Assembly: GCA_031263295.1 (NCBI GenBank)
Contig: JAISGC010000055.1
Coordinates: 1-47,889 of the forward strand
Length of the DNA stretch: 47,889 nucleotides
Direction of reading: 5' to 3'
Source: Rickettsiales bacterium
GTDB taxonomy: Bacteria; Pseudomonadota; Alphaproteobacteria; Rs-D84
In this document: piece after piece, positions 776-47,224 of the stretch
Position numbering within the stretch: position 1 is the first letter of the stretch
Layout of the letters: each line of letters starts with the position of its first letter
The notes under the pieces: generated by a model
Databases searched by the model: none
The model's input: the letters and a program-made list of their open reading frames with translations, nothing else
What the model was told of the DNA's origin: nothing
Position numbers and translations under genes: made by a program

Positions 776-919
776 AATGAATAAATAATAATGAATAAAG
801 AATAAATACCCCACCCAAGTTTTGCTAGGGCTCGCGTCGCTCGCCAAGCAAAACTTTCCCGCCCCGCTCCGCGGGGCAGGAAGGAGCGCGTTCGCACTCC
901 TCCAATTATTCTTTATTCT
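776..919. repeat. compound palindrome with AATGAAT-type heptad arms enclosing an E1 element
   Basis: aatgaataaataataatgaataaagaataaat (776-807) is complementary to attattctttattc (905-918). The right arm also encodes the last codons (..ENKE*) of the minus-strand gene ending at 906. Confidence 0.6.
809..880 (+). repeat. E1 GC-rich palindromic element, copy 1 (intergenic)
   Basis: ccccacccaag-ttttgc-..ctcgccaa-gcaaaa-ct..cccgcccc-gctccgc-ggggcagg. Same layout as 10860-10932 and the reverse complement of 38117-38189, with compensatory stem changes. Confidence 0.8.
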
Positions 920-2999: not shown

Positions 3000-3065
3000 A
3001 AAATCCTTACCCGGATTATACCATATTTTAGGGGCGGGGGACAAGAGACGAGGGACTAGGAGTTA

Positions 3066-6601: not shown

Positions 6602-6689
6602 GGACTAGGATTAGGACTAGGACTGGAAATCGTTATAGTGTCGCGGCGCAATAACAAGTTCCACCTAGTCCTAATCCTAATCCTAGTCC
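6601..6689. repeat. hexad-arm hairpin element H1 (AGGACT/AGGATT units)
   Basis: aggactaggattaggactaggactgg (6601-6625) pairs with ccacctagtcctaatcctaatcctagtcc (6661-6689). The loop contains gcgcaataacaag. It sits exactly between the ppiD-like stop and the ftsY ATG. Confidence 0.9.
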
Positions 6690-6692
6690 CAA

Positions 6693-7469
6693 ATGAGTTT
6701 TATAAAACGAATCTTCGGCAAGAAAGTCAACGACGATTTGGAAGAAATCCTGATCGCCGCCGACATCGCGCCGGATGCGGCGAAAGAGCTCGCGAAGTCG
6801 GCGGATGAAAAAGACCTGCGCGAAAAATTACTAAAATACGCCCGCCGCCTTGAACCTGATACCAATTCCCTGATACCTGATACCCTTTTAATAGTCGGCG
6901 CGAACGGCGCGGGCAAAACGACGACCATCGGCAAACTGGCCGCGCGATGGGCGGGCGAAAACCGCCGCGTAGTCATAGGCTCGGGCGATACTTTCCGCGC
7001 CGCCGCGACCGAGCAGTTGGACATTTGGGCCGAGCGCGCGGGCGCCGAAGTCATCCACGGAACCGAACCCGCGGCCGTCGCGTATAAAACTTTGGAAACA
7101 GACGCGGATGTGAAAATAATCGACACGGCGGGCCGACTTCATAACCGCCAAGACCTGATGGACGAGCTTGCGAAAATCGTCCGCGTTATGAAAAAGCTGG
7201 ACCCGTCGGCGCCGAGCGATACCTGGCTTGTCTTGGACGGCAGCCACGGCCAGAACGCATTGGCGCAGATAGAGTTCTTCAACCGCGCCGCGCCGCTGAC
7301 GGGACTGATTGCGACGAAGATGGACGGGACGGGGCGCCAGGGATTTTTGATAACATACGCCGCGCGCGAAGCCCATCCTCTGCCCGTCATATTCACGGGC
7401 TGGGGCGAGCGCGCCGAAGACCTCCGCCCCTTTTCTGCCGAAGATTTTGTGAATAGAATATTGGACTAG
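6693..7469 (+). CDS. ftsY: signal recognition particle receptor FtsY (compact, no acidic A domain)
   Basis: GANGAGKTTTIGKLA P-loop, DTAGRLHN, TKMDGT motifs of the SRP GTPase NG domain. Stop TAG 7467-7469 lies inside the repeat arm. Confidence 0.9.
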   Translation: MSFIKRIFGKKVNDDLEEILIAADIAPDAAKELAKSADEKDLREKLLKYARRLEPDTNSLIPDTLLIVGANGAGKTTTIGKLAARWAGENRRVVIGSGDTFRAAATEQLDIWAERAGAEVIHGTEPAAVAYKTLETDADVKIIDTAGRLHNRQDLMDELAKIVRVMKKLDPSAPSDTWLVLDGSHGQNALAQIEFFNRAAPLTGLIATKMDGTGRQGFLITYAAREAHPLPVIFTGWGERAEDLRPFSAEDFVNRILD

Positions 7470-7549
7470 GACTAGGATTAGGACTAGGTGTGACTCGCGA
7501 TTGCGCCACAACGCAATAACAACCTCCACCTAGTCCTAATCCTAGTCCT
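7463..7549. repeat. hexad-arm hairpin element H2
   Basis: ggactaggactaggattaggactaggtg pairs with cacctagtcctaatcctagtcc. Loop carries acgcaataacaac. Lies between convergent ftsY and the CPA2 antiporter gene. Confidence 0.9.
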
Positions 7550-7556
7550 AAAACTC

Positions 7557-9273: not shown

Positions 9274-9281
9274 TAAAAGTT

Positions 9282-9367
9282 TAATGACTAATGACTAATA
9301 ACTAATGTCTAATTTCTAATGAGCGGCAATTAGTAATTAGACATTAGTTATTAGTCATTAGTCATTA
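9282..9367. repeat. heptad-arm hairpin element H5 (TAATGAC units)
   Basis: taatgac taatgac taataac taatgtc taatttc taatgag - cggc - complementary arm aattagtaattagacattagttattagtcattagtcatta. About 32 perfectly paired nt. Located in a divergent promoter region. Confidence 0.9.
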
Positions 9368-9456
9368 AAAAAAAGTCCTTGCGTCAAGTTTGCGGTTTTT
9401 GCTAATCTTGCCCGGACGAGGGAAATTGAGAGATTACCCGATAAGGAGTTTTTATT

Positions 9457-10584
9457 ATGAGTTTGGAGTTTTCGGTTTTCAGACAGGCGCTGGTTTCGGC
9501 GCTCGGGCATATGCAGTCCATAATTGAAAAGCGCAATACCTTGCCGATTCTGTCGAATGTCAAGATCGAGGCCGGGGCCGACCTGGTCCTGACCGCGACG
9601 AATGTCGACCTTGAATTGATAGAGCATGTCGCGGCCGATGTTTTGTCCGGCGGCGCGATAACGATACCGGTCCAGATGTTTTACGACCTTGTGCGGAAAT
9701 TGCCCGAGGACGCGGAAATCAAGGTGAAATTGTCCGACGCGGGCGAGTTTGTCGTCTCGTCGGGGCGCTCGGTCTTCAAGTTCCAGACTATGCCCGCGGA
9801 CAACTTCCCGATGATGGTCGCGCCGACCGCGGTCGTAAAGTTCCAGATGAACACGGACGACCTTGCGCGCCTGATAAACCAGACGAAGTTCGCGATTCCG
9901 GCGGACGATGTGCGCTATCACTTGGGCGGAATATATTTCCATATAGACGATAAAAAACTGACCGCGGTCGCGACCGATTCGCAGAGGCTGGCGCTGTGCT
10001 CGATGCCCGCGCCCGCCGGCGCCGAGGCTATGCCGTCGGTTATTCTGCCGCGCCGCTTGGTCGCGGAGGTCGCGAACCTTCTCGGCGATGTGAAGGTCGA
10101 CGATGTGGTGGTCGAGTTGTCCGATACCAAGGCGCGCTTCACGATTGGCGCGGCGACCTTGACCAGCAAGCTGGTTGACGCGCAGTATCCGAACTATAAA
10201 ATTGTAATTCCGAAGAACAACGAGAAAATCGCGACGATGAACACCAAGCAATTCGTGCATGCGATAGACCTTGTGTCCGCCGCGAGCAGCGACAAGACGA
10301 AGACCGTTCAGCTGGGATTCTCTATGAATAAACTGGTCGCGTCGGTGTCCAGCAAAGACGACGGCAATTCGGTCTCGGGCGCGGAGGAATTGGATATTGA
10401 ATACAACAGCGATGATTCGTTCCAGATTCTGTTCAACCTGCGTTTTTTGCTGGACATAGCGAACCAGGTCGACGGCGGGGACAAAGTGTCCTTGGCAATG
10501 CAGGACGCGCTATCGCCCACGCTGATTCGCTCGGCGGCGAAAGACACGGATTCGATGTTCATCCTGATGCCGATGCGGATTTAA
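9457..10584 (+). CDS. dnaN: DNA polymerase III beta sliding clamp
   Basis: 375 aa. MSLEF..FRQALVSALGHMQSIIEKRNTLPILSNVKIEA.. and the C-terminal ..MFILMPMRI are typical of DnaN. SD TAAGGAG upstream; candidate promoter TTGCGT-18-TAATCT. Confidence 0.95.
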   Translation: MSLEFSVFRQALVSALGHMQSIIEKRNTLPILSNVKIEAGADLVLTATNVDLELIEHVAADVLSGGAITIPVQMFYDLVRKLPEDAEIKVKLSDAGEFVVSSGRSVFKFQTMPADNFPMMVAPTAVVKFQMNTDDLARLINQTKFAIPADDVRYHLGGIYFHIDDKKLTAVATDSQRLALCSMPAPAGAEAMPSVILPRRLVAEVANLLGDVKVDDVVVELSDTKARFTIGAATLTSKLVDAQYPNYKIVIPKNNEKIATMNTKQFVHAIDLVSAASSDKTKTVQLGFSMNKLVASVSSKDDGNSVSGAEELDIEYNSDDSFQILFNLRFLLDIANQVDGGDKVSLAMQDALSPTLIRSAAKDTDSMFILMPMRI

Positions 10585-10590
10585 TGGGAT

Positions 10591-10760
10591 GCCTGGTGGG
10601 GCGAGTTTTGATAAAACTCGCCAATTGCAAATTGGAAGGGGGCGAAGCCCCTCTGACAATTTGCAATTAAATTGAAAGCGATTTTCTTTTTATTTTCTCC
10701 GGGGCTTCGCCCCATCGAAAATAAAAAGGGTGTGTTTTACCAAACCACACCCCACCAGGC
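10591..10760. repeat. composite nested palindromic element bounded by gcctggtgggg / ccccaccaggc
   Basis: Contains hairpins ggcgagtttt-gat-aaaactcgcc, aattgcaaattg..caatttgcaatt, tttttatttt..ggggcttcgcccc..aaaataaaaa and ggtgtg..cacacc. The right half recurs at 44755-44844. Confidence 0.75.
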
Positions 10761-11868
10761 TCGACCAAAAAAACAACTGCCAACTAAAAAAAACTCCGTT
10801 TCCAAAAAGAAAACCGCCGCCAAAAAAACGGCGGTTAAAAAACGCGCAGTCAAAAAAAGCCCCCACCCAAGAGTTGCTACGGCTCGCTCCGCTCGCCAAG
10901 CAACTCTATCCCGCCCCCGCAAGCGGGGGCAGGAAAAGCGTTCGACGCGCCGTAAGATTATTCTCTATTCTCTGTTCTCTGTTCTCTTTTCTCTTAGTCT
11001 CTTATTCTCTTATTCTCTATTTATCCGCCCGGCGTGGACGGGCGGCGAATACATCGTCGCAAGCGGCGCGTCCGTATCGCGCGTTGTCGCGGACCTGAAC
11101 CAGGGCGATATTTTCAAGTTTTTAATCCGCGCGCGCGGCGGCCGGGTGATGGCAGGAACCTATGACATTCCCGAAAGCGCCAGCGTCTGGCGCCTGGCTC
11201 GGATGCTGTCCTTGGGCGAGATCGCGAGCGCATCGATTACTATCCCCGAGGGCCTGACCAGCAAACAAATCGCGCTGCTGCTGGGGGCGGCGCACGAATA
11301 CAAAGACGGCGAATTATTTCCCGACACCTATTCGATTCCAAAGGGTTCCGACCCGGCGCAGGTCATCGATATGATGAAGAAAAAAATGGACCGCGTGCGC
11401 GAGAACTGGGAACGGGCGGGCCGCCGTTTGCCCGCTCCGTTAAAAGACTGGAACGAGGTCATGACGCTCGCGTCGATTGTCCAAAAGGAAACGCCGCGCG
11501 CGTCCGAAATGCCGGTTGTCGCGTCGGTCTATCTGAACCGGCTGCGAAAAAAAATGCGGTTGCAGGCGGACCCGACGGTCGTCTATGCGATAACGGGCGG
11601 GCTCGGCGATATGCAGGGGCGCCCGCTGTTTTCCAAACACTTGCAGACCGCGAGCCCGTATAACACTTACCGCAACGCGGGTCTGCCGCCCGCGCCGATC
11701 GCGAATGTCGGAATGGACGCGATCGCGGCGGTGCTGAATCCGGCGGACACGAATTATTTATACTTCGTCGCAGACGGCACCGGCGGCCATAGTTTCAGCC
11801 GCACCCTCGACGAGCACAACGCCAATCGCAGCGTCTGGCGACGGATTAAAAAAAAGAACAATGAATGA
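10672..11868 (+). CDS. mltG: endolytic murein transglycosylase MltG (YceG); true start uncertain
   Basis: YceG domain: TIPEGLTSKQIA, LFPDTY, ASIVQKETPRASEMPVVASVYLNRL, SPYNTYRNAGLPPAPI. The first ~115 codons of the ORF are made of repeat elements. There is no in-frame ATG before the TM segment, so the start is TTG 10672 or an unidentified alternative. Confidence 0.85.
   Translation: MKAIFFLFSPGLRPIENKKGVFYQTTPHQARPKKQLPTKKNSVSKKKTAAKKTAVKKRAVKKSPHPRVATARSARQATLSRPRKRGQEKRSTRRKIILYSLFSVLFSLSLLFSYSLFIRPAWTGGEYIVASGASVSRVVADLNQGDIFKFLIRARGGRVMAGTYDIPESASVWRLARMLSLGEIASASITIPEGLTSKQIALLLGAAHEYKDGELFPDTYSIPKGSDPAQVIDMMKKKMDRVRENWERAGRRLPAPLKDWNEVMTLASIVQKETPRASEMPVVASVYLNRLRKKMRLQADPTVVYAITGGLGDMQGRPLFSKHLQTASPYNTYRNAGLPPAPIANVGMDAIAAVLNPADTNYLYFVADGTGGHSFSRTLDEHNANRSVWRRIKKKNNE
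10860..10932 (+). repeat. E1 element, copy 2 (in frame inside the mltG 5' ORF)
   Basis: cccccacccaag-agttgc-..ctcgccaa-gcaact-ctatcccgccccc-gcaa-gcgggggcagg, translated as ..SPHPRVATARSARQATLSRPRKRGQ.. Confidence 0.8.
10958..11031 (+). repeat. ATTCTCT/GTTCTCT heptad tract encoding the MltG membrane anchor
   Basis: attctct attctct gttctct gttctct tttctct tagtctc ttattct cttattc is translated ILYSLFSVLFSLSLLFSYSLFI, the only hydrophobic segment ahead of the YceG domain. Confidence 0.8.
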
Positions 11869-11871
11869 CGC

Positions 11872-12020
11872 GCGGTGTTCCCCTCCTTTGGAGGGGTGCC
11901 GCCGAAGGCGGCGGGGTGGTGGCGAAGGTCTGCACTGCCTGCTGCAAGTACCACCCCGTCATTTTTTTGCTTTGCAAAAAAATGCCACCCCTCCAAAGGA
12001 GGGGAACACCACCCCACCGC
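11872..12020. repeat. R1 REP-like inverted repeat (GGTGTTCCCCTCCTTTGGAGGGGTG arms)
   Basis: Left arm gcggtgttcccctcctttggaggggtg, right arm cacccctccaaaggaggggaacacc. Inner ggggtggt..accacccc and the palindrome tttttttgctttgcaaaaaaa. Confidence 0.85.
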
Positions 12021-13136: not shown

Positions 13137-13164
13137 AATTTTTCTCCCTGTTTTTGTTTTTTAT

Positions 13165-13321
13165 GCGATGCCTTCCGCGCGGTGTTCCCCTCCTTTGGAG
13201 GGGTGGGCGGGCAACGGCCGGGGTGGGTCTGGTGAAAGGCAGTGCCGTTGTTCGACACCCCCCCGCCGCCCTGCGGGCGGCACCCCTCCAAAGGAGGGGA
13301 ACACCGCGCGAAAGGCATCGC
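13165..13321. repeat. R1 REP-like inverted repeat, inserted in the leader of the Cys-rich gene
   Basis: gcgatgccttccgcgcggtgttcccctcctttggaggggtg ... cacccctccaaaggaggggaacaccgcgcgaaaggcatcgc. It is absent from the homologous leader at 16754-16833. Confidence 0.85.
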
Positions 13322-13376
13322 ATTGTCGGGAAACTTTGGGGCGCAAGCCCGGCGAAGCGCCGAAGGCGCGAAGACG

Positions 13377-13626: not shown

Positions 13627-13729
13627 TTAACGACCAACTACTAACGACTAGTGACTAGTGGCAGCGCGACGGCGGGCACCCCACTAGTCACTAGTCGTTA
13701 GTCACTAGTCGCTAGTAGTTAGTCGTTAA
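13627..13729. repeat. heptad-arm hairpin element H6 (CTAGTGA/CTAACGA units)
   Basis: ttaacgaccaactactaacgactagtgactagtgg - loop - ccactagtcactagtcgttagtcactagtcgctagtagttagtcgttaa. The right arm carries two extra heptads. Confidence 0.85.
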
Positions 13730-14501: not shown

Positions 14502-14517
14502 AACTCCCTCCTTTTTA

Positions 14518-14632
14518 GGGTTCGCGTGATAATCGCCCATCTCGACGCGTTTTTCACCCACTCGCGTATTCTTATACGCTTCGGGGTGAAAAACGCATCG
14601 ACCTGAACGATTCTGACGCGAACACCTCGCTG
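14518..14632. repeat. D element, ~115-nt rod-like imperfect palindrome, copy 1
   Basis: Reverse-complement match to 42787-42900 along its whole length, with compensatory changes in two internal stems. Confidence 0.85.
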
Positions 14633-14641
14633 TTCCTCTCT

Positions 14642-18150: not shown

Positions 18151-19149
18151 ATGAACAAAATATTTGCGGTGTTGGGCGGGGTCGGGGCGCTATGGTTCGG
18201 GCGAGACTTGTTGCTACCCATAATAACGGCGGTGTTTTTGTGGTATCTGACCATCGCCATCGGCTCTTACTATCGGCGCATCCTTAAAATAGGATGGCTG
18301 TCAAACGCGGCGGCGGGCGCGTCCTTGCTCGGCGTCGTCTGGGGATTCATCGAGCTGATTCGCCCGATGCTGTGGGACCTCTATAAACAGGCGCCGCAGA
18401 TTGCCGAAGGCGGCAAGCATCTTATCGCCGAGCTCTCCGAAATCGTCGGGACCGAGATTTCCTTCGCGGGCCTGCCGACATTACAGGAATCGATTATGGC
18501 CGCGGGCAACTCCTTGGCCTCGGGCGGCGCGGTTCTGGCCATGATAATAATCTATATGATTTTCATTTTCATAGAACAGGGTTCGTTCCCGAAAAAACTC
18601 CGCGCATTGTTCCCGCAGAATAAGCAGTTTGGAAAGGCGAGCTTCATACTGCACGCTATTGATTCCCAGATGAAAAAATATCTCGGCGTCAAGACCTTCG
18701 TGTCGCTGCTGCAAGGCTTCGCGTTTTATCTGTGCCTGGCGGTAATCGGGGTGCCGTTCGCAGCTCTATGGGGTTTCGGGCAGTTCCTGCTGAACTATAT
18801 TCCGACATTCGGCTCCATCGCGGCTACAACTCTGCCGATGCTCTATTCGTTCGCGATAAACGGCGACATAACCGATGTGATTCTTATCGGAATCTCGGGC
18901 GCGATTGTGAACTTGATATTCGGAAATATTCTGGACCCGAAGCTGACGGGCAAATCCTTGAACCTGTCGCCGCTGGCGATACTGGTCAGCCTGATATTCT
19001 GGGGGATGCTGTGGGGCAGCCTGGGGATGTTCTTCTCGGTTCCGATTTTGGTCGGCATCTATGTCGCGGCCGCCCAGTTCGAATGCACGCGCTGGATAGC
19101 AGTTCTGTTGTCCGCGGACGGACAGATACCGGATAAGAATGAAGAGTAG
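18151..19149 (+). CDS. AI-2E family (PerM/UPF0118) transporter
   Basis: Polytopic. Conserved tail ..NYIPTFGSIAATTLP..ILDPKLTGKSLNLSPLAILVSLIFWGMLWGSLGMFFSVPI. The TAG stop lies in the H7 arm. Confidence 0.8.
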   Translation: MNKIFAVLGGVGALWFGRDLLLPIITAVFLWYLTIAIGSYYRRILKIGWLSNAAAGASLLGVVWGFIELIRPMLWDLYKQAPQIAEGGKHLIAELSEIVGTEISFAGLPTLQESIMAAGNSLASGGAVLAMIIIYMIFIFIEQGSFPKKLRALFPQNKQFGKASFILHAIDSQMKKYLGVKTFVSLLQGFAFYLCLAVIGVPFAALWGFGQFLLNYIPTFGSIAATTLPMLYSFAINGDITDVILIGISGAIVNLIFGNILDPKLTGKSLNLSPLAILVSLIFWGMLWGSLGMFFSVPILVGIYVAAAQFECTRWIAVLLSADGQIPDKNEE

Positions 19150-19267
19150 AGAATAAGAGAAACGCAAACGCTTCGCGTTTGCAGAGAATAAGAGAATAGA
19201 ATTTGCTATCGCGCAATAACTTTATTTCAAGCTCAATTCTCTTATTCTCTCATTCTCTTATTCTCTA
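19146..19267 (+). repeat. heptad-arm element H7 (AGAGAAT units), non-coding copy
   Basis: agagaataagagaa-[cgcaaacgcttcgcgtttgc]-agagaataagagaataga - loop with gcgcaataac - attctcttattctctcattctcttattctct. Confidence 0.9.
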
Positions 19268-19808: not shown

Positions 19809-19865
19809 CTTTTATGAGGTTATTCCAGAGCGCTTTCCTAATCCCTAGTCCTAATCCTAGTCCTT

Positions 19866-19890
19866 AAAAATGCCCCGAAGGGGCATTTTT
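19866..19890. terminator. bidirectional intrinsic terminator
   Basis: aaaaatgcccc-gaa-ggggcatttttt between convergent genes. It overlaps the TAA stop of the minus-strand OMP gene. Confidence 0.75.
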
Positions 19891-20817: not shown

Positions 20818-20912
20818 AAGGACTAGGATTAGGACTAGGACTAGGTGGAGCCCGTTGTTGCGCCGAAGCGCGATAACAAGCCACACCTAGTCCTAGTCCT
20901 AATCCTAGTCCT
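20818..20912. repeat. hexad-arm hairpin element H3
   Basis: aaggactaggattaggactaggactaggtgg pairs with ccacacctagtcctagtcctaatcctagtcct. Loop carries gcgcgataacaag. Confidence 0.9.
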
Positions 20913-20917
20913 GCATT

Positions 20918-22009: not shown

Positions 22010-22029
22010 CAAGGGAATACCGCCCAGCT

Positions 22030-22423
22030 GGTGTTCCCCTCCTTTGGAGGGGTGGCCGCGAAGGGCGGCGGGGTGGTGCTTGTCGCTGGCACCGCCAAAA
22101 CCAAAACGATTTCCGAAGGAAATCGTCATACCGGCGAAGGCCGGTATCCACTGCTTTCACGCAAGCCATAACTTATAAATTATAACAAGCCTTCTGGCAG
22201 TGGATCCCGGGTCGACAATCCACCCGGATTGTCTCCGTGCCGGGATGACGAGTTCTTTATGTTATTGCAAAATAGTGAATGTAAGGTTTATAGACCCTAT
22301 CCCCGCCTACGCGGGGATGACAAAAGTTTGCTTTGCAAACTTTTGTTTTGGTTTAGCCAGTGCAAATGTGAAGCACCACCCCGCCCCGCTTCGCGGGGCA
22401 CCCCTCCAAAGGAGGGGAACACC
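22030..22423. repeat. R1 inverted repeat whose arms are split by nested insertion of other elements
   Basis: ggtgttcccctcctttggaggggtg (22030-22054) and cacccctccaaaggaggggaacacc (22399-22423) are about 345 bp apart. The interval holds a GTCAT-family composite element (22098-22354). Confidence 0.75.
22098..22354. repeat. GTCAT(A/T)CC-family composite palindromic element
   Basis: aaaccaaaac-[gatttccgaaggaaatc]-gtcataccggcgaaggccggtatcc ... ccccgcctacgcggggatgac-[aaaagtttgctttgcaaactttt]-gttttggttt. Same layout as 38646-38837. Confidence 0.7.
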
Positions 22424-22490
22424 CGCGTGAAGGCATTGCCACTCTTTCGCTCTTGCATTCCATCCCTAAATCTAATACCATACCGCGGCT

Positions 22491-26128: not shown

Positions 26129-26806
26129 TCAGAAACTAATCCGCAATGATGCCGACACATTGTGCGACACAGGCGTGAAGTTTTTAACGGCGTCGAGCTC
26201 GTTGGGCAGCCAGCGGATGAATCTGTATGCGAGCCCCAGCGCCAATGAGCGATTGATTTCGACCGACACGCCGCCGATTAAATTATACGCGATGGGGGAA
26301 TATTTTGTTTTATCTGCGCCGACCCACTCAATTTCGCCCGCGCCGACGCCGAAGCCGACGAACGGGACGAACGGGTTGGTCTTGAACATCTGATATTCCG
26401 GGGACAATTTCGCGTCGAATATAAAGTTCGCGAATCCCCAGTGCCCGTCGCCGCGAATGTCGCCGTAATCCTCGCGCAGATTCAGATAGCTCGCCTCGAC
26501 CCGGAACGACCGCGCCAGCCGCAGCCCGACCGCAGCCGAAAAGCCGTCCATTGAATCGGCCTTCATTCCGCCCGCCGCATCCGCGAAATGCATATTCCAT
26601 CCGCCCTCGATATAGAATCTCTTCAAGGGCTCGGCCCCGGCCTGATAATCCTCCGGCTCGCCGTCGCGCGCGACGACATACTGGACATCGGCTTTGGCGG
26701 CAAAGCCGACAAAGCAAGAGAATAAGAGAATAAGAGAATAAGAGAATGGAGCGAAACGCAACCGCATCGCTTTAATTTTTTGCAAAAACATTGTAATGAA
26801 CTCCAT
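26129..26806 (-). CDS. beta-barrel outer-membrane protein (tandem paralog 1)
   Basis: MEFITMFLQKIKAMRLRFAPFSYSLILLFSCFVGFAAKA signal, ends ..SASLRISF. ATG and h-region lie in the arms of element H8. Confidence 0.75.
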   Translation of the reverse strand: MEFITMFLQKIKAMRLRFAPFSYSLILLFSCFVGFAAKADVQYVVARDGEPEDYQAGAEPLKRFYIEGGWNMHFADAAGGMKADSMDGFSAAVGLRLARSFRVEASYLNLREDYGDIRGDGHWGFANFIFDAKLSPEYQMFKTNPFVPFVGFGVGAGEIEWVGADKTKYSPIAYNLIGGVSVEINRSLALGLAYRFIRWLPNELDAVKNFTPVSHNVSASLRISF

Positions 26807-26856: not shown

Positions 26857-27627
26857 TTAAAAACTGCTCCTCCACGACAAGGACGCGCCGAGCAAGCCGA
26901 AGGTATTGCGGCCGTCCTCGAATCCGGCGGGGCCGGTCATAAACTCGTATTTCGCGGAAAGGTCGATCGCGTTCGTCTCGGTCATCAGGAACGAAAATCC
27001 CGCCGCCGCGCGGCCGCCCGCGATAAAGCCGGAAAAGCCCGTCGCCGCGAAATCCGCGTATCCGCCCGCCGCTCCTATGCCGATGAACGGCACGACCCGG
27101 CGGCGATACATAATATCGCCGCGCATTCTGTATCTGCGGGCCAGGTCGAAATAAAGCATCGCGTCGCCGCCGTCGATGTTCGCCGTGCCGCTGCCCGCGC
27201 TCGGGCTATCGGTCCAACGCAAGTCCTGGTGCCACAGGGCCAGTTCGCCGCGGGCCCATGACGAAAAGTTCGCGCCGAGGGCGAAGCGCTCGAAAAATCC
27301 CCAGTCGTATTCGACGCCCTGCTTGATGCCGAAGTTCGCGCCGCCGCCAAGCCGCACATAGAAATCGGTCGGAATAAATACATCCTGATCCGTCTCGACC
27401 GGGCCCTTGTCATAGACCGCATTGCCAAGGCTTCCCGCGGCCGCGGGCTTTTTCGCGCGCACCGCGATATAGTCCAACCCGCGCGCCGTCTCGCTGGTGA
27501 AAGCATCGTAATTTGCCGCGCCTGCGGCGCCGCAAAGAGAGAATAAGAGAATAAGAGAATAAGAGAATGGGGCCCGACGCAGCCGCAACGCTTTAATTTT
27601 TAACAAAAACAATTTAATGATTTCCAT
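26857..27627 (-). CDS. beta-barrel outer-membrane protein (tandem paralog 2)
   Basis: MEIIKLFLLKIKALRLRRAPFSYSLILLFSLCGAAGA signal, ends ..LSWRSSF. The only in-frame ATG lies in the H9 arm. Confidence 0.75.
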   Translation of the reverse strand: MEIIKLFLLKIKALRLRRAPFSYSLILLFSLCGAAGAANYDAFTSETARGLDYIAVRAKKPAAAGSLGNAVYDKGPVETDQDVFIPTDFYVRLGGGANFGIKQGVEYDWGFFERFALGANFSSWARGELALWHQDLRWTDSPSAGSGTANIDGGDAMLYFDLARRYRMRGDIMYRRRVVPFIGIGAAGGYADFAATGFSGFIAGGRAAAGFSFLMTETNAIDLSAKYEFMTGPAGFEDGRNTFGLLGASLSWRSSF

Positions 27628-33578: not shown

Positions 33579-35197
<1,619 letters not shown>

Positions 35198-35377
35198 TTC
35201 TTTTTTATCGATTCTCCGTTCTCTGTTATTTGTTCTCTTTCTCATAAAAAGGTCCCTCCAAATCTGAGGGATGACCGGGGAGTTCTAAAATCAAATATGA
35301 AAAATGACCCCGCAGGCCTTCGGGTTTCCCCTGTTTCATAGCCAGCGGCTCCCCGGCCGAAGCGGGGGCATTGCGCA
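35198..35377 (-). promoter_or_regulatory. candidate riboswitch-like leader, motif copy A
   Basis: Minus strand: GGCCGGGGAGCCGCUGG ... GAACUCCCCGG (helix 35349-35356 / 35275-35282), then CCCUC-agauuug-GAGGG + U5. Related to 42116-42189. Confidence 0.4.
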
Positions 35378-36180: not shown

Positions 36181-37908
36181 ATGAAAAAACTTTTAACGAT
36201 TTTGATTGCACTTTGCACTTTGCAAATTGAACTTTGCGCGGCCGAGCCGTTGCCCACGATTTTGTCGGAGAACGACGCGGCGAATTACGCCAAGATTTTC
36301 TCGCTGCAAGACGCTGGCAAAATATCGGCGGCGGCGAAACTTGAAAAGGAACTCGAAAGCGACATCCTGATGGGCGAGGTTTTGTATCAAAGATATATGT
36401 CGAAAAATTACGCCTCCAAGGGTGTCGAGGTCGCCGAGTGGATGGAGAAATATTATAACCATCCGGGCGCGGAAACTATGTTCAAGCTGTCGATGCGGAA
36501 AAAAGTCTTGGCGCGCGAGGCGGCGCTGCCGACTATGGCGAGCGCGAAATACGACGGCGGCGCCTATTCCGAATCATGGACCACGCGGAAATATTCCGGC
36601 TCGACCGGCCGCGAAATCGGGCGATTCCAGGCGAACCTGAAACGGCGGAATCTCAAAACCTGCGCGACTATTTTGGAAAACAAAGGCGTCAAAACGAATG
36701 TGTCATGGACGGACTACGGGCGGCTGGCGGGGCGGCTCGCCTTCACTCTTTATAATGGCGGCGAGATGGAAGAGGCGACGAAATGGGGCGCGGTCGCGGC
36801 CGAACGCAACAGCGAGATTGGCCTGTGGACCATGGGTTTGTTGAGTTTTAAGAACGCGGACTTCGCGGCGGCGGAAAAATATTTCGCGGCGATGTTGGAG
36901 TTGGAGCACATCAATATGAACCGCAAGGTCGAGGCCGCATTCTGGGCGGGCCGTTCCGCGGACGAGGCCGACGACGGGCGCGCGGCGCGCAAACACTGGC
37001 GCTATGCGATGCAGAGGCCCGCGAGTTTTTACGGCGCTATGTCGGCGGCGGCGCTCGGGCGCGAGCCGGACTATGAGTTTTACGAAGATGTTATTTCGAG
37101 AGACGATATCGCCAATCTGATGAAGACGAAATACGGGCTGATTGCATTGGCCCTTTTGCAGGCCGGTCAGAACGAGCGGGCCGAGGGGCATCTGCGATAC
37201 TTGATTACGGACCGCGCGTCGGACGATTTGCTGCACGCGGTGCACGCGCTCGCGACCAGTGAGGAATTGCCGCGGACGGCGCTCGCGGTCGCGCCCATTA
37301 TAAAGGAGCGCGGGATTTTGGAAATCGACAGCAATGTGATCTTGTCGGCGCAGTTTCCGCTGCCGCAATGGGAGCCGCGCGGCGGCTGGGAAATAGACCG
37401 CGCGCTCTTGTTCGCAATCGCACGCCAGGAATCGCGATTTAAGACGAACGCGAAATCGCATGCGGGCGCGACGGGTCTTCTACAACTGATGCCGAAGACC
37501 GCAAAACTGACCGCGGTCAAAAGCGGAATCAAAATGAACTCGCTCGACCTGACCAACCCGGAGGACTCGATGTTCCTGGGCCAGCAGCATGTGCTCGATC
37601 TGTTCGCGCTTGAAAATGTCGACAACAATATTATAAAAATGCTGGTGTCATATAACGCGGGCAACGGGAACCTTCGCAAGTTCGAGCGGCGCTTCGAGAC
37701 GGACGATCCCCTGCTTTACATCGAAAGTTTCCACCTGCCCGAGACTCGCGGTTATATAAAAATCGTGATGTCGAACCTGTGGCTTTATCGCGCGCGTTTG
37801 GGCCAGCCGATGAGCAATCTGAACGATTTGGTTCACGGCCGCTGGCCGCGATACTCGGCGCATGATGACTACGCGAACCGGCGCAGCGAGGAAAAGAATA
37901 TAAATTAG
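36181..37908 (+). CDS. slt: soluble lytic murein transglycosylase (Slt70-like)
   Basis: Superhelical N-domain plus the SLT catalytic motif ..AIARQESRFKTNAKSHAGATGLLQLMPKTA.. The signal peptide MKKLLTILIALCTLQIELCAA is encoded by TGCACTT-type heptads. The TAG stop is in the H4 arm. Confidence 0.9.
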   Translation: MKKLLTILIALCTLQIELCAAEPLPTILSENDAANYAKIFSLQDAGKISAAAKLEKELESDILMGEVLYQRYMSKNYASKGVEVAEWMEKYYNHPGAETMFKLSMRKKVLAREAALPTMASAKYDGGAYSESWTTRKYSGSTGREIGRFQANLKRRNLKTCATILENKGVKTNVSWTDYGRLAGRLAFTLYNGGEMEEATKWGAVAAERNSEIGLWTMGLLSFKNADFAAAEKYFAAMLELEHINMNRKVEAAFWAGRSADEADDGRAARKHWRYAMQRPASFYGAMSAAALGREPDYEFYEDVISRDDIANLMKTKYGLIALALLQAGQNERAEGHLRYLITDRASDDLLHAVHALATSEELPRTALAVAPIIKERGILEIDSNVILSAQFPLPQWEPRGGWEIDRALLFAIARQESRFKTNAKSHAGATGLLQLMPKTAKLTAVKSGIKMNSLDLTNPEDSMFLGQQHVLDLFALENVDNNIIKMLVSYNAGNGNLRKFERRFETDDPLLYIESFHLPETRGYIKIVMSNLWLYRARLGQPMSNLNDLVHGRWPRYSAHDDYANRRSEEKNIN

Positions 37909-37996
37909 GACTAGGATTAGGACTAGGACTGGCATTCGTTATAGCGCTACAACGCAACAACAAACTTCACCTAGTCCTGATCCTAGTCCTGGTCCT
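37904..37996. repeat. hexad-arm hairpin element H4
   Basis: attaggactaggattaggactaggactgg pairs with cacctagtcctgatcctagtcctggtcc. Loop carries acgcaacaacaaa. The rnhB ATG follows 3 nt after the arm. Confidence 0.9.
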
Positions 37997-37999
37997 AAT

Positions 38000-38641
38000 A
38001 TGAAAACAATTCCAACCTTTGACCTTGAACGCGAGTGCGGCGGAATCGTCGCGGGCGTCGACGAGGCCGGGCGCGGCCCGCTGTGCGGTCCGGTCGTTGC
38101 GGCTGCGGTTGTTTTTCCTGCCCCCGCTTGCGGGGGCGGGATAGATTTCGTTAGCGAGCAACGCGAGCTTACGAAATCTTGGGTGGGGGCCCACCCGCTC
38201 ATTGCCGATTCCAAACAACTCACCGCGAAACAACGCGAGGCGGCGTTCGAATGGATAATCGCAAATTGCGCGGTCGGCGTCGGGCAATGCAGTCCCGCCG
38301 AAATCGACGAGATAAATATTTTGCAGGCGTCGTTGCTCGCGATGAAGCGCGCTATCGCCGCCCTGCCCCGCGCGCCTGATTTTTGTTTAATCGACGGGAA
38401 CAAAATGCCCGCGGATATTGTCGGCCGCGCGGTTGTAAAGGGCGATGCGAAATCTGTTTCTATTGCGGCCGCGTCCATTGTAGCGAAAGTCTCGCGCGAT
38501 AAAATTATGGCCGAACTCGCCCGCGACTTTCCGGAATACGGATGGGACAAGAACGCGGGCTATCCGACCCCGGCGCATTACTCCGCCATCGCCGCGCACG
38601 GCATAACGAAGCATCATCGAAAAACATTTAGATTAGTTTGA
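38000..38641 (+). CDS. rnhB: ribonuclease HII carrying an in-frame repeat-element insertion
   Basis: GVDEAGRGPLCGPVVAAAVVF ... DSKQLTAKQRE ... IDEINILQASLLAMKRA ... DGNK ... ASIVAKVSRD. About 30 residues separate AAAVVF from DSK, and most are encoded by element E1. Confidence 0.9.
   Translation: MKTIPTFDLERECGGIVAGVDEAGRGPLCGPVVAAAVVFPAPACGGGIDFVSEQRELTKSWVGAHPLIADSKQLTAKQREAAFEWIIANCAVGVGQCSPAEIDEINILQASLLAMKRAIAALPRAPDFCLIDGNKMPADIVGRAVVKGDAKSVSIAAASIVAKVSRDKIMAELARDFPEYGWDKNAGYPTPAHYSAIAAHGITKHHRKTFRLV
38117..38189 (-). repeat. E1 element, copy 3, in frame inside rnhB
   Basis: Reverse complement = cccccacccaag-atttcg-..ctcgctaa-cgaaat-ctatcccgccccc-gcaa-gcgggggcagg. Translated as PAPACGGGIDFVSEQRELTKSWVGA. 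Confidence 0.85.
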
Positions 38642-38645
38642 GTCG

Positions 38646-38837
38646 AAACCAAAACAAACCCCGAAGGGGTTTGTCATTCCCGCGCAGGCGGGAATAGGGC
38701 TTTCAACCTTATAACAACAGACTTGTTTCACATAATAATGTAAATGTGAAAGCAAGTAGTGACTGAATGTAAGGTTTAGAGCCCTATTCCCGCCTGCGCG
38801 GGAATGACAAAAAATCCTTTCAGGATTTTTTGTTTTG
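38646..38837. repeat. GTCATTCCCGCGCAGGCGGGAAT-family composite palindromic element
   Basis: aaaccaaaac-[aaaccccgaaggggttt]-gtcattcccgcgcaggcgggaatagggct ... agccctattcccgcctgcgcgggaatgac-[aaaaaatcctttcaggatttttt]-gttttg. Confidence 0.8.
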
Positions 38838-38869
38838 ACTTTGAGACAGCATTGAATATAATCGCAATC

Positions 38870-39508
38870 ATGAAAAAACTCCTGACCCTTGCAATGTCCT
38901 TCGCGCTTGCGGCATGCGCGTGGCCGCGGACGCCGACCGACGGAGATTTGTTCCGCGCGACGCGGCAGTTTCAGCCGGAACTCTTCGCGACCGGATCGCG
39001 CGGCGAGGTCGTCGTGAAAATGCACGACGATCAGACCAGCACCGGATGGTTCGGCAAAAAATACAGCAACATCCTGAACTATAAAAATGTAGCCAGCAAA
39101 GAGGCCGGATACCTTGAAATGAAAACCGGCGAGACGGAATACGCGACGGCGATGCTGCCCATCGGGGACTATGAGATAACCGGAATGAAACTGCTGTATG
39201 TCTGGACCGAGACGCAGCGCCAGGGCAATGTGACGATAACGACCACGCACATCGAGGAGCACGACGGCTTTATGGGCGCGGACAAGTTGGCGTTCTCGGT
39301 CCGCGCGGGGCGCGTGATTTATCTCGGCGACATCGCGCTGCACCTCGGCGACAACGCGGTCTCGAAAGACGATCGGTCGGTGAACAAGAGCACATACAAA
39401 ATCACGGACAAGTCCGCCGAGATTTCCGCGGACCAAAAGCGCGAGTGGGAAGAAGAGTTCGGGCGGCCGCTTGAAGTCGGGCTGATACGCAAGGGGGGCG
39501 CGAAATGA
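38870..39508 (+). CDS. lipoprotein, function unknown
   Basis: Start taken at ATG 38870. Lipobox MKKLLTLAMSFALAAC. The stop overlaps the next ATG (ATGA). Confidence 0.7.
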   Translation: MKKLLTLAMSFALAACAWPRTPTDGDLFRATRQFQPELFATGSRGEVVVKMHDDQTSTGWFGKKYSNILNYKNVASKEAGYLEMKTGETEYATAMLPIGDYEITGMKLLYVWTETQRQGNVTITTTHIEEHDGFMGADKLAFSVRAGRVIYLGDIALHLGDNAVSKDDRSVNKSTYKITDKSAEISADQKREWEEEFGRPLEVGLIRKGGAK

Positions 39509-42764: not shown

Positions 42765-42786
42765 CGCCTTACTTTTGCAAGGCTTA

Positions 42787-42900
42787 CAGCGAGGAGTTCG
42801 CGTCAGAATCGTTCAGGTCGATGCGCTTTCCGCCCCGAAGTGTATATCAATACACGAGTGGGCGGAAAACGCGTCGAGATGGGCGATTATCACGCGAACC
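42787..42900. repeat. D element, copy 2 (inverted relative to copy 1)
   Basis: The reverse complement aligns with 14518-14632. Stem pairs gttttccgccc/ggggcggaaagc here versus gtttttcaccc/ggggtgaaaaac there. Confidence 0.85.
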
Positions 42901-42907
42901 TTATAAA

Positions 42908-44754: not shown

Positions 44755-44844
44755 TATTTTTTATTTTCTCCGGGCCTTGGGTCTGCGACCCCGGCCCATC
44801 GAAAATAAAAAAGGTGTGTTTCATCGAAACACACCCCACCAGGC
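44755..44844. repeat. right-half copy of the composite element seen at 10591-10760
   Basis: attttttattttctccgggcc..ggcccatcgaaaataaaaaaggtgtgtttcatcgaaacacaccccaccaggc. Confidence 0.75.
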
Positions 44845-44851
44845 TCTGGAA

Positions 44852-47224
44852 TCATTGCACCGGAACGATTTTGCATGTATCGGTATTAGTATCCCATCTG
44901 CCGCCGCCGATTTCTTCGCAGAGCTTCTGATACCCGCCCATCAGGTTGATTATAGTCTGCTGGCCCGAAGGGTCGAATTGTTTTGTGTCAGGGTTCAGGC
45001 ACGCGACATCCGCGCGCTGGACCAAGGCCTCATACACGCTGCCCGTGCCGAAAAACGGCCGGCTTCCGCAGGCGTCCGCAGACCAGCTTCCCGCCGCAAT
45101 CACGCGCGCCTTTTTCGCGGCTATTTGCGCCTGGGTGCAGTTGCCTTCGCTGTCGGGAGTGTCGCAAGACCCGTCGTCGTAATAGCACAGGTCGGCCATA
45201 TATCTTTTTAATTCTGATTCGCACATTGTCGAGACCTTGGTGTCGTCGACGGTTTCCACAAACGCGCGCAAGGCCGCGAGCCCGCACTTTTTGTTCTGCG
45301 CGTCCGAGACCTGACCGGTGTCCGAGACCACGCATCCGTCGCTGTCGCCGTAAAGCGCGGCGCAGGCCAGCACCTTGTCCGAGCACATCGAGCTGGCGGC
45401 GCGCACGCCGATTCCGGCCGAGGCGCTTTGGACCGCGGTCGACATCGCCTCGTCGCCCTTCACCTCGGCGAACATATTCAGATCGCCGGTCTGCTTGTTA
45501 TAGCATTGCGTCATCATCGAGACGCAGTTGTCTTTCACGGACTCGATTTTATCGTCCTGGGCCTGCGCGATTTCAATCAGCGCCTGCTGCTTGAAGGCGG
45601 CCCAGACCGCATCGGAATCGTCCTTGCAGGTGTTCAGCGCCGAGGCCGCGCGGCTGCGCAGTTTATCCAGATTATCCAGGAAAACCTTGTTCGCGGTATC
45701 GTTCAGATTGTTCAGATTTATCTGGTCTTTCAGCTTGAAGAGCTGCGGCGAGTAAATCGGCTCGCCGGTGGTCGCGCTGATGTAAAGCCCGGTGAAGTCG
45801 AGGCAGCGCTCCCATTTCGGACCGCAGGCATAGGGGTCCTGAATCTCGGTCCGGACGGCGGCGATGCACTGGTTGACCGACGCCGAATTGTGCGCGCGAT
45901 AGTCTTCGAGGCGCGCGGCGGTCATCGCATTGTTCGCCTCGCGGATTGTGGATTCGAGGGCTTGGCGCTGGGCATCCAAGCTTTTCTCATAGGCGCTGCA
46001 ATCCTGGGAAATCAAAATAGTGTAAGCGCTCGCGACCATATTCGCCGAGGCCTGGTTGTTCGCGCAGGATGAAGACACGGACATACACTGCGAATAGACC
46101 GCGTCGTAAAGGGCCTTGCCCTCCAAAGTATCGAGATTGACCGCATTGGTCGAGCCGCGATTGTTTCCGTTCGATGCCGTCGCGAAAGGATCGGTCGATG
46201 TCGAGCCGCCGCCCCAAATGTCGCCAGACGATGTGTTGAAGTTCAGATTCAACGACGATCCGCCGCCGAGGACTTTTTGCGCGGCCGAGCTCGACGAAGT
46301 CGTCGCCGGGACATCGGAGGCCTTTTTCGTTCCGGCCAAAAGCGCGTTGATATTTTCGAGCATCGCGGCCGACGCGGACTTGTCGGTCTTCAATGCGGAC
46401 TCGCCCTCGCTGGCGGTCGACATCGCGTTCGCCTCGTCCGCGGTCAGTCCGATTGCATAGAGGTTCTGGTCGTTGAATTGCAGAATCATTTGCTTGGCGG
46501 CGTCGAAGGCCTCCTCGCGGTCGCGGAAACTGCGGAACTTGTCCGAGCACAGGCACCGGCGGTAGACATCGGACTTCAAGCCGCAGAACTGGTCCATGCA
46601 GGCGAAATACGCCTCGCGGCACTGATTATATTCCGGGCCCATCGAGGCGGTGTTGGTGAAGAGAGCCGTTGCGCGCGCATTGTTCGGAGCATTGACCACG
46701 CCGCCGATTGCGGCCGCGCGCGCGCGCGCGGGTCCTCCGGCGCCCTTTGCAGGCGCGCCGCGTCCGGCGCGAACGCCGCCCATAACCGCGGCGCGCGCGG
46801 CGGTCGCCGAGCGAGCGGTCGCGGCCGAGCCGCGCATCGGTCCGGCGATGACGCCGCCACCGGCATTGCCGCGCGGCACCATCGCCGAGCGCGAAGACGC
46901 GGCGGGCGCGCGGGTAATCTGAATTGCTGAACGGCCGACTTGCGGGCCGCTGCCTGCGTTCAGGCCGCCGTTATTGATTGGGACGGCGCGGGTCAGGCCG
47001 CGCTCGGGGACTATGACGCCGCGGCTGGTTGTCGAGCGATTGGACTTGGTGTTTTGTTCGAGAATCTCGCGCTGTTCGGCCTCTTTGTCGCCGCGCCCCG
47101 TCAGGCTGGCGGCCTTGGAAGTCGTGGCGGTCGCGGCCCCGCGCGGATTCGGGCGCGCGTTGTCGGCGGCGAAACCCGCGTGGCAAAACGCGGCCGCAAA
47201 CGCAAAGGCAATAATTTTTCTCAT
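44852..47224 (-). CDS. large secreted Cys-rich protein, paralog B (function unknown)
   Basis: Start taken at ATG 47224 (MRKIIAFAFAAAFCHAGFA). Arg/Ala/Gly-rich N-region, then CREAYFACMDQFCGLKSDVYRRCLCS, with collinear conserved Cys and motifs shared with 906..2999 (ARLE(D/S)Y(R/D)AHNS, ATGEPIY(S/T)P). Confidence 0.8.
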   Translation of the reverse strand: MRKIIAFAFAAAFCHAGFAADNARPNPRGAATATTSKAASLTGRGDKEAEQREILEQNTKSNRSTTSRGVIVPERGLTRAVPINNGGLNAGSGPQVGRSAIQITRAPAASSRSAMVPRGNAGGGVIAGPMRGSAATARSATAARAAVMGGVRAGRGAPAKGAGGPARARAAAIGGVVNAPNNARATALFTNTASMGPEYNQCREAYFACMDQFCGLKSDVYRRCLCSDKFRSFRDREEAFDAAKQMILQFNDQNLYAIGLTADEANAMSTASEGESALKTDKSASAAMLENINALLAGTKKASDVPATTSSSSAAQKVLGGGSSLNLNFNTSSGDIWGGGSTSTDPFATASNGNNRGSTNAVNLDTLEGKALYDAVYSQCMSVSSSCANNQASANMVASAYTILISQDCSAYEKSLDAQRQALESTIREANNAMTAARLEDYRAHNSASVNQCIAAVRTEIQDPYACGPKWERCLDFTGLYISATTGEPIYSPQLFKLKDQINLNNLNDTANKVFLDNLDKLRSRAASALNTCKDDSDAVWAAFKQQALIEIAQAQDDKIESVKDNCVSMMTQCYNKQTGDLNMFAEVKGDEAMSTAVQSASAGIGVRAASSMCSDKVLACAALYGDSDGCVVSDTGQVSDAQNKKCGLAALRAFVETVDDTKVSTMCESELKRYMADLCYYDDGSCDTPDSEGNCTQAQIAAKKARVIAAGSWSADACGSRPFFGTGSVYEALVQRADVACLNPDTKQFDPSGQQTIINLMGGYQKLCEEIGGGRWDTNTDTCKIVPVQ

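Follow-up and report, generated by a model that had tools for sequence, protein, structure and literature searches.

We asked how a G+C-rich palindromic unit, here called E1, came to lie inside rnhB, the gene of ribonuclease (RNase) HII, in contig JAISGC010000055.1 of GenBank assembly GCA_031263295.1, and what became of the enzyme. The window, that is, the whole stretch of 47,889 nucleotides (nt) that was analysed, comes from a bacterium labelled 'Rickettsiales bacterium' by NCBI, with a G+C content of ~0.55 and with metagenome-assembled genomes (MAGs) as its best RnhB matches. The best explanation, to which we assign a probability of roughly 0.8, is that E1 is a non-autonomous selfish palindromic repeat, similar to Rickettsia palindromic elements (RPEs) and REPs (repetitive extragenic palindromes), that has multiplied in uncultured alphaproteobacteria carrying this label. 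One E1 unit would have landed in codons for an RnhB surface loop, which links the strand after the catalytic DEAGRG motif with the DSK motif. The length of rnhB would have changed by a whole number of codons, and the frame read through the element would be stop-free, so that the gene would still be read through; RnhB would gain a loop of about 25 residues and keep its catalytic core.

E1 is a repeated element read in frame in rnhB

The first-pass annotation, made from the DNA letters of the window, had proposed three copies of E1: one between genes, one in mltG and one in reverse orientation in rnhB. A covariance-model search of the whole window placed the three copies where they had been proposed (Table 1; E values from 6e-15 to 2e-18) and found no further significant copy. 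Half-element IUPAC patterns also matched the window at these three sites only, with 0-0.06 matches expected from shuffled sequences; the chance expectation for the three copies was ~0. Copies 1 and 2 were 79% identical over 76 nt, and copies 2 and 3 were 88% identical over 56 nt. The likeness of copy 3 to the other two ended precisely where the unit ends; beyond E1, copies 1 and 2 had in common a further downstream module and an AT-rich simple-repeat arm. All three were solo units. The E1 sequence had a G+C content of 0.63-0.70. Together with 29 copies found in relatives, they bore out the description of E1 as a repeated palindromic element and not a gene-specific sequence.

The RnhB protein of the window was 100% identical to P0001, annotated as ribonuclease HII of a 'Rickettsiales bacterium' (NCBI; Joint Genome Institute, JGI). 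E1 occupied codons 40-64 (38117-38191, + strand) and was read without a stop as PAPACGGGIDFVSEQRELTKSWVGA, with the catalytic DEAGRG motif upstream and the DSK motif downstream. The in-frame reading proposed earlier therefore held, as did the length of the spacer from F39 to D70, 30 amino acids (aa) versus 10 aa in Escherichia coli RNase HII. HMMER aligned residues 16-41 and 68-211 with the E. coli enzyme (E = 6.6e-42) and set the 26 residues 42-67 against five E. coli residues (38-42). In an alignment with 25 orthologues, a comparison that the first-pass annotation had called for, 68/68 invariant columns were kept in RnhB, and rnhB gave no sign of being a pseudogene.

We then considered the predicted structure. 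The AlphaFold2 model of RnhB had a mean predicted local distance difference test score (pLDDT) of 85 and a predicted template modelling score (pTM) of 0.85. The pLDDT fell below 50 only at residues 46-62 and at the C-terminal three residues, and the flanking blocks scored 92-95. Foldseek matched the model to E. coli RNase HII 7uwe_C with a probability of 1.00, template modelling (TM) scores of 0.76/0.86 (the value of 0.86 being normalised to the target) and a root-mean-square deviation of 2.2 Å, and the model also superposed on the substrate-bound T. maritima enzyme. The insert appeared as a low-confidence loop on an otherwise confident RNase HII fold. In the model, the insert behaves as an unstructured excursion from the loop just before the DSK motif, and the ~25 residues probably form a disordered surface loop on a preserved catalytic core. 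Judging from the sequence, the insert would be translated and RNase HII activity retained.

Copy 2 was read in frame within MltG, where it encoded the peptide SPHPRVATARSARQATLSRPRKRGQE of the cytoplasmic N-terminal tail. The sole in-frame mltG starts (10672 and 10732) lay upstream of this copy, and the membrane helix and the YceG domain (aa 129-386, E = 1e-75) lay downstream. Copy 1 separated the 3' end of pheT (stop at 769) from a convergent open reading frame (ORF) at 906-3044 and was flanked by AT-rich inverted arms (Table 1).

Base pairing in E1 is kept while its sequence varies

The E1 unit measured 69-75 nt; in rare variants, extra apical sequence brought it to 79-109 nt. Its 5' end was a conserved C-rich tag, CCCCCACCCAAG, followed by helix 1, a stem of 8-9 bp whose sequence varied while pairing was kept. 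The apex of helix 1 was a small imperfect hairpin, often GCTCGC-NNN-GCTCGC, or a wholly different insert. The linker CTATCCC joined helix 1 to hairpin 2, a G+C hairpin of the form CCCGCCCCC-loop-GGGGGCAGG, and a C/A mismatch in hairpin 2 was present in 17/17 aligned copies (columns 53 and 73 invariant). About half of the 29 copies were followed by AAA(A). Units occurred singly, as head-to-head pairs or joined with other hairpin modules.

The double substitutions read earlier in helix 1 of the three window copies (TTTTGC/GCAAAA, AGTTGC/GCAACT and ATTTCG/CGAAAT) were confirmed, and the second G+C hairpin was found in all three, copy 1 having a variant 1 bp shorter with another loop. The stem covariation proved real and extended to 17-29 copies from related contigs. 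Across 17 aligned copies, 94% of cells at paired positions were complementary, versus 84% in column shuffles and at most 47% with slid partners, and 0/500 shuffles attained the observed pairing score. Both sides had changed in 10 of the 21 base pairs. For helix 1, this was so in 6 of 8 pairs, with no G-U intermediates, as would be expected if the constraint acts on DNA or on both strands, and RNAalifold recovered helix 1 unprompted. More than eight unrelated helix-1 versions occurred among all copies, every one complementary, and the rnhB version (ATTTCG/CGAAAT) was seen again in the RsmD inserts described below.

The window copies folded at -36 to -46 kcal/mol (z -3.1 to -5.5), both strands of E1 folded well (z of about -3 to -5.5), and the two-hairpin fold of copy 3 had a z of about -5 on both strands. 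The reverse strand of E1, which is the sense strand in rnhB, was ~6 kcal/mol more stable because the C/A mismatch turns into G-U. The visible constraint lies on nucleic-acid pairing, which points to a copying hairpin and not to the peptide. Because of the covariation, we propose that a hairpin, of single-stranded DNA or RNA, would be needed to copy E1, and that the encoded peptide would not be the selected feature.

E1 in related genomes lies in other intact genes

Motif and covariance-model searches of related contigs gave 29 E1 copies (E < 1e-5) in 12 related sources, with 11 head-to-head pairs among them. A scan of species-representative genomes, a collection that excludes the window's own genome, returned four stretches. 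Two were true E1 contigs of MAG Gsp477_bin73, and the other two were chance matches in G+C-rich coding DNA. The Gsp477 isolate prefix denotes a Glyptotermes termite sample (PMC11707648), and at least one genome of the related lineage thus comes from a termite gut. A metagenome scan returned 103 stretches, with E1 in 7 contigs from three JGI data sets; the ~95 other matches were due to chance in G+C-rich DNA and to one unrelated repeat family. This repeat, ...GGCAGCCAAAAGGCTTCAGCGGAGCTCGCAAGGCTCGCTCCCGTCCCGTCCCGCCCCGCCCCCGACC..., occurred in ~20 contigs from a few metagenomes (Ga0105053-55, Ga0335398, Ga0209390 and others; Table 1) and matched the E1 pattern by chance. No BLAST match to E1 was found among the PLSDB plasmids.

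E1 was read in frame in TruB, in an AddA/UvrD-like helicase and in an RsmD-family methyltransferase (Table 1), and the remaining copies in related contigs lay upstream of or between genes. RsmD enzymes normally have ~190 aa, and P0121 was enlarged by ~120 aa of element-encoded sequence, with one in-frame E1 pair just before the S-adenosylmethionine (SAM)-binding motif and a piece of a third repeat family, to which its peptide GVFYQKIPHQA is related. A protein search with the concatenated E1 peptides gave four matches, namely the window RnhB, the window MltG, a UvrD-like fragment and RsmD P0121. Homology at the peptide level was rejected, as all four belong to this lineage and are accounted for by the DNA repeat.

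Across genes E1 was read in three different frames, and it also lay between genes. The three genic frames (r0, f1 and f2) were stop-free in 15, 21 and 24 of 28 copies and were the most often open, the other three being open in 7-12 of 28. No E1 copy that breaks a recognisable gene was seen in the window or in the related contigs, a pattern such as selection would leave. Genic copies would persist only at sites that tolerate their length, their frame and their place in the protein, because those found are in frame, stop-free and located in loops, with their host genes intact.

The spacers of E1 pairs and their outer 5' flanks often consisted of TAGATAC/CTAGATA simple repeats (L030, 72-106 and 6893-6928; L058, ~10046-10090), which resembled the AT-rich arms of window copy 1. 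This arrangement suggests that larger composite palindromes contain E1 as one of their modules.

The same RnhB loop carries unrelated repeats in orthologues

We compared the RnhB spacer among 117 close orthologues. It was 13-14 aa long in 88 of them and 30-45 aa in seven. The inserts in the orthologue loops were unrelated to each other in sequence (Table 1), and one further protein, P0009, showed a peptide signature as in L002. The first-pass annotation had implied that close orthologues would not carry spacers of similar length and unrelated, non-palindromic sequence. This stood for four of the five long spacers examined at the DNA level, which were strongly palindromic (L001, L002, L110 and L112), and failed for the fifth, L111; the L111 spacer leaves the repeat nature of E1 unaffected. 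The first 19 nt of the L111 insert also occurred, unchanged, in the terminal hairpin of the element directly downstream of the window rnhB, and these 19 nt are all that this sixth repeat family shares with the start of the insert.

The sequences point to five distinct repeat families, E1 and four others, as having entered or been retained in the same few RnhB codons, and this loop is a place where repeats have landed, or been tolerated, again and again. Orthologues with different RPE groups near the same site (PMC3767692) and REPs that share one recB site between two Xanthomonas species (PMC3733652) have been described. Because RPEs and REPs show comparable sites, the RnhB hotspot is supporting context and not a first.

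With respect to the downstream element (38670-38811), the first 19 nt of its terminal hairpin, GTCATTCCCGCGCAGGCGGGAATGAC, were also found at 1129-1147 of L111, with further matches at 1968-2051 of L004 and 1713-1731 of L062. Several other RnhB orthologues read 'IPAQAG' where the L111 insert begins, which may be what is left of an old insertion by this family.

Observations that weigh against insertion of a mobile repeat

Several observations count against the reading of E1 as a mobile selfish repeat. No near-identical genome with an empty rnhB site was found, the closest RnhB orthologue being 68-72% identical. Deletion of the 25 E1 codons leaves the RnhB loop ~6 residues below the orthologue mode; the insertion was therefore not clean, or the ancestral RnhB loop was short. 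The 38-aa spacer of L111 has no palindromic structure (z -0.56), and the RnhB loop can therefore lengthen by other routes too. Inheritance within subfamilies, and not independent events, accounts for part of the covariation count. Neither a target-site duplication nor a terminal inverted repeat was seen in the flanks of the 29 E1 copies, and no transposase domain was detected among ORFs of at least 120 aa in the 47.9-kb window. For 66 pooled ORFs of related loci, the 25 commonest NCBIfam families listed were housekeeping families such as SecDF and XerC/D, among which a lone transposase match would not show.

Under the selfish-repeat reading, E1 would have a transposition-like mobility. One hypothesis is a single-strand mechanism like that of REPs and their REP-associated tyrosine transposases (RAYTs), with which the head-to-head pairs and the conserved mismatch are compatible.

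Comparison with known palindromic elements

RPEs insert in frame at solvent-exposed sites (PMC10969869). The RPE-like behaviour claimed for E1 by the first-pass annotation was upheld, with in-frame insertion, an apparently solvent-exposed position and different groups near the same orthologue site (PMC10969869, PMC3767692). Like RPEs and Wolbachia palindromic elements (WPEs), E1 is an alphaproteobacterial palindrome found both between genes and in frame in housekeeping genes, with host genes unbroken. In both systems, several element families coexist in one genome, and different families are found at almost one position in orthologues; inserts of RPEs lie in exposed loops, and those of E1 probably do. 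The genes truB and pheT are among the hosts in both (PMC10969869, PMC3767692, PMC3733652). As in RPEs, E1 forms a stable repeated hairpin (fold z -3.1 to -5.5; 94% of cells paired), and in-frame copies occur in intact genes: rnhB, mltG, and those of TruB, the AddA/UvrD-like helicase and RsmD. The families RPE-1 to RPE-10 were reportedly described by Ogata and co-workers in 2000 and 2002.

E1 differs from RPEs in several respects. Its unit has 70-75 nt versus 100-150 bp, a length that only E1 pairs (~150-160 nt) reach. It is G+C-rich, in a genome of ~55% G+C, and it consists of two hairpins and a tag and is often dimeric. The two were compared by behaviour and anatomy. Our verdict is that E1 belongs to the RPE/REP-like class of protein-coding palindromes, apparently outside Rickettsia. 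In the literature searched, we found no description of protein-coding palindromic repeats of this lineage and base composition.

REPs are imperfect palindromes of 20-40 nt with a GTAG or CGTC tag at one end, and they occasionally lie inside genes (PMC3733652). With REPs and bacterial interspersed mosaic elements (BIMEs), E1 shares G+C-rich imperfect hairpins, frequent inverted pairs, a BIME feature represented by the 11 head-to-head pairs among 29 copies, and the presence of some copies in repair or replication genes. In contrast to REPs, E1 has two hairpins and a conserved single-stranded tag and is two to three times longer. Membership of the REP family was rejected, since the E1 ends, CCCCCACCCAAG and GGGGGCAGG, carry neither GTAG nor CGTC and the size is wrong.

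RAYTs are IS200/IS605-like HUH tyrosine transposases. We regard it as rather unlikely that E1 is a REP/BIME-type element that a RAYT from another part of the genome copies in the form of a single-stranded DNA hairpin; this would be a narrower version of the mobility step, and not of the insertion itself. E1 units are commonly found in closely spaced head-to-head pairs, as are REPs in BIMEs, REPs are documented in repair and replication genes (PMC3733652), and the C/A mismatch conserved in all 17 aligned copies could tell the strands apart. However, the REP tag is absent from both ends, a two-hairpin unit of 70-75 nt is set against 20-40 nt, and the ORFs of the window yielded no Y1 transposase.

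Bacterial MITEs (miniature transposable elements with inverted repeats), which include ERIC, Correia/NEMIS, RUP and Nezha, are recognised by a target-site duplication together with terminal inverted repeats that are 15-30 bp long. E1 resembles them in being small, non-autonomous, strongly folded when transcribed and sometimes intragenic. Membership was rejected, as the ends of the E1 unit are not inverted copies and no target-site duplication was present at 29 copies. We know of no parent insertion sequence of E1. Some intragenic MITEs give in-frame fusions (PMC10969869).

Other explanations of the rnhB insert

It is improbable that E1 is primarily a structured RNA useful to its host, such as one that stabilises mRNA, serves as a target of RNase III or makes translation pause, and that genic copies are kept for this function. 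Very stable folds are predicted (-36 to -46 kcal/mol), the G-U wobble stabilises the rnhB sense strand, and an rnc gene lies in the window. However, the orientation to transcription is inconsistent, with copy 2 forward in mltG and copy 3 reverse in rnhB, and paired units put both E1 orientations in one mRNA. Helix 1 has no G-U intermediates, and no T-run follows either hairpin in either orientation, which also rules out an intrinsic terminator. Rfam gave no match to E1 or to an RPE at gathering thresholds over the whole window or in E-value mode over 37900-38900; the scans returned only a tRNA and sub-threshold chance matches.

Still further from likely is that the 25 residues form an adaptive, lineage-specific RNase HII loop under protein-level selection, for example for partner binding, with the likeness to other sites being secondary. 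Several orthologues extended the same RnhB loop, and TruB, the helicase and RsmD contain similar peptides (PAP.CGGG...E..EL..WG) from the frame that rnhB uses. Yet the same DNA is intergenic at 808-880 and has a different frame and orientation in mltG, the orthologue inserts are unrelated in sequence, conservation tracks base pairing and not codons, and AlphaFold2 assigns the insert no confident structure.

An artefact, such as a metagenome mis-join at a repeat, or a recently inactivated rnhB is hardly credible: the contig does come from a MAG and is crowded with repeats, but rnhB keeps one frame before and after a single, complete E1 unit, the catalytic and invariant residues are all kept, and in-frame inserts of this kind occur in independent assemblies from other samples.

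Wider significance

Protein-coding palindromes have so far been regarded as peculiar to Rickettsia (and Wolbachia), and a second, unrelated-looking G+C-rich set in another alphaproteobacterial lineage makes the phenomenon broader. As a single finding, E1 in rnhB is explained by this known phenomenon; what stands out is the density of element families and the RnhB hotspot of five families. The RnhB loop offers a natural experiment on whether insertion is targeted or tolerated and on how much foreign sequence a conserved enzyme absorbs. For annotation, E1 explains the over-long RnhB (213 aa) and RsmD (312 aa) in these MAGs, and such over-long proteins should not be called pseudogenes or novel domains.

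We offer tentatively, as possible and on balance doubtful, the broader idea that this lineage, seemingly gut-associated, hosts a modular community of palindromes (E1 and at least four other families) that evolved independently of RPEs and repeatedly entered the same positions of housekeeping proteins. The clearest case of repeated entry is the RnhB loop, with five families in six orthologues. If true, this would imply directed integration at DNA sequences or structures, or a general role of such elements as raw material for protein loops. The role might then extend to membrane segments, through palindrome arms made of an 8-nt simple repeat.

Other repeat elements in the window

Table 1. Positions and contexts of E1 copies, host genes, orthologue inserts and other repeats (L-numbers denote related loci)
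Feature	Position	Strand	Context	Description
E1 copy 1	808-880	+	intergenic	covariance-model score 78.7 bits
AT-rich inverted simple-repeat arms	779-806 and 906-918		around E1 copy 1	
E1 copy 2	10860-10933	+	in mltG coding sequence	covariance-model score 94.7 bits
mltG coding sequence (NCBI P0122)	10732-11868	+	host of E1 copy 2	378 aa; start GTG 10732
E1 copy 3	38117-38189	-	in rnhB	73 nt; covariance-model score 94.4 bits, E 2.7e-18
rnhB (RNase HII)	38000-38641	+	host of E1 copy 3	213 aa; PF01351
TruB	L056		between N- and C-terminal domains	E1 head-to-head pair, in frame
AddA/UvrD-like helicase	L105		925-codon open frame	E1 pair and third unit, in frame
RsmD-family methyltransferase P0121			'Rickettsiales bacterium', 9,106-bp contig, 312 aa	two E1 pairs, in frame
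RnhB insert, closest orthologue	L001		matches window 438-490, 44815-44854	130-nt multi-hairpin insert, z -6.4
RnhB insert	L002		ends equal window repeats at 11878, 13185, 13278, 22034, 22397	near-perfect 125-nt palindrome, z -12.7
RnhB inserts	L110, L112		match each other	palindromes of a further family, z -7.6 and -3.9
RnhB spacer	L111			38 aa, not palindromic, z -0.56
Palindromic element (families D8, I6/I7)	37907-37998		spacer from SLT-domain gene to rnhB	arms AGGACTAGGATTAGGAC.../...GTCCTAGTCCT
~90-nt palindromes, same family as 37907-37998	6601-6692, 7463-7550, 20819-20916; partial arm 19844-19868		intergenic spacers	
Palindromic element (I11)	38670-38811		directly downstream of rnhB	42-nt arms, 95% complementary; terminal hairpin GTCATTCCCGCGCAGGCGGGAAT
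(ATTCTCTT)n tract	10957-11020		MltG membrane helix	
(ATTCTCTT)n tracts	26717-26765, 27538-27585	-	two signal peptides	
Second palindromic family, window	11869-12010, 13163-13323, 22013-22440			ends GGTGTTCCCCTCCTTTGGAGGGGTG / CACCCCTCCAAAGGAGGGGAACACC
Second palindromic family, relatives	L002 541-668; L105 6424-6535; L074 4739-4891			
Third family	window 10591-10760, 44795-44854, 438-490; L001 4249-4378, 8662-8709			ends GCCTGGTGGGG...CCCCACCAGGC, internal hairpins
GGCAGCCAAAAGGCTTCAGCGGAGCTCGCAAGGCTCGCTCCCGTCCCGTCCCGCCCCGCCCCCGACC repeat (1)	L019, L023-L025, L035, L043, L047, L050, L054, L068, L070		metagenome contigs	
GGCAGCCAAAAGGCTTCAGCGGAGCTCGCAAGGCTCGCTCCCGTCCCGTCCCGCCCCGCCCCCGACC repeat (2)	L072, L073, L077, L078, L081, L089, L092, L099, L101, L109		metagenome contigs	

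The palindromic element upstream of rnhB covered the stop codon of the SLT-domain gene and ended 2 nt before the rnhB ATG. Its ~90-nt family consists of hexamer simple-repeat arms (AGGACTAGGATTAGGAC... / ...GTCCTAATCCTAGTCCT) around a 40-nt centre. The second palindromic family began 1 nt past the mltG stop in the window. In relatives, it was found in frame in RnhB, where it encodes FPSFGGVAAQ...PPKEGN, and in the AddA/UvrD-like helicase close to its Walker A motif. For the third family, the copy at 10591-10760 held both candidate mltG start codons, and a 53-nt fragment was read in frame in PheT, in the linker of the last two domains (aa 135-167), with 88.7% identity to the rnhB insert of L001.

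The 8-nt simple repeat (ATTCTCTT)n was translated as hydrophobic segments of the FSYSLILLFS type (Table 1). The two signal peptides concerned belong to paralogous outer-membrane beta-barrel proteins, and the repeat also formed the arms of an intergenic palindrome at 19148-19267. The arms of repeat elements may thus supply membrane segments.

Further repeats were observed elsewhere in the window. A near-perfect palindrome at 9280-9369, with 41-nt arms and TAATGAC-type repeats, lay between a Kef-type transporter gene and dnaN, with a weaker copy at 13642-13707. An intergenic inverted repeat pair of 122 nt (14512-14633 and 42786-42907) was 90% complementary over a distance of 28 kb, and each arm was itself internally palindromic. 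Finally, a tract of 9-nt periodicity at 34012-34240, located downstream of the ORF at 34388-35245 (- strand), contained at least 19 units and read on the minus strand as collagen-like Gly-X-Y triplets.

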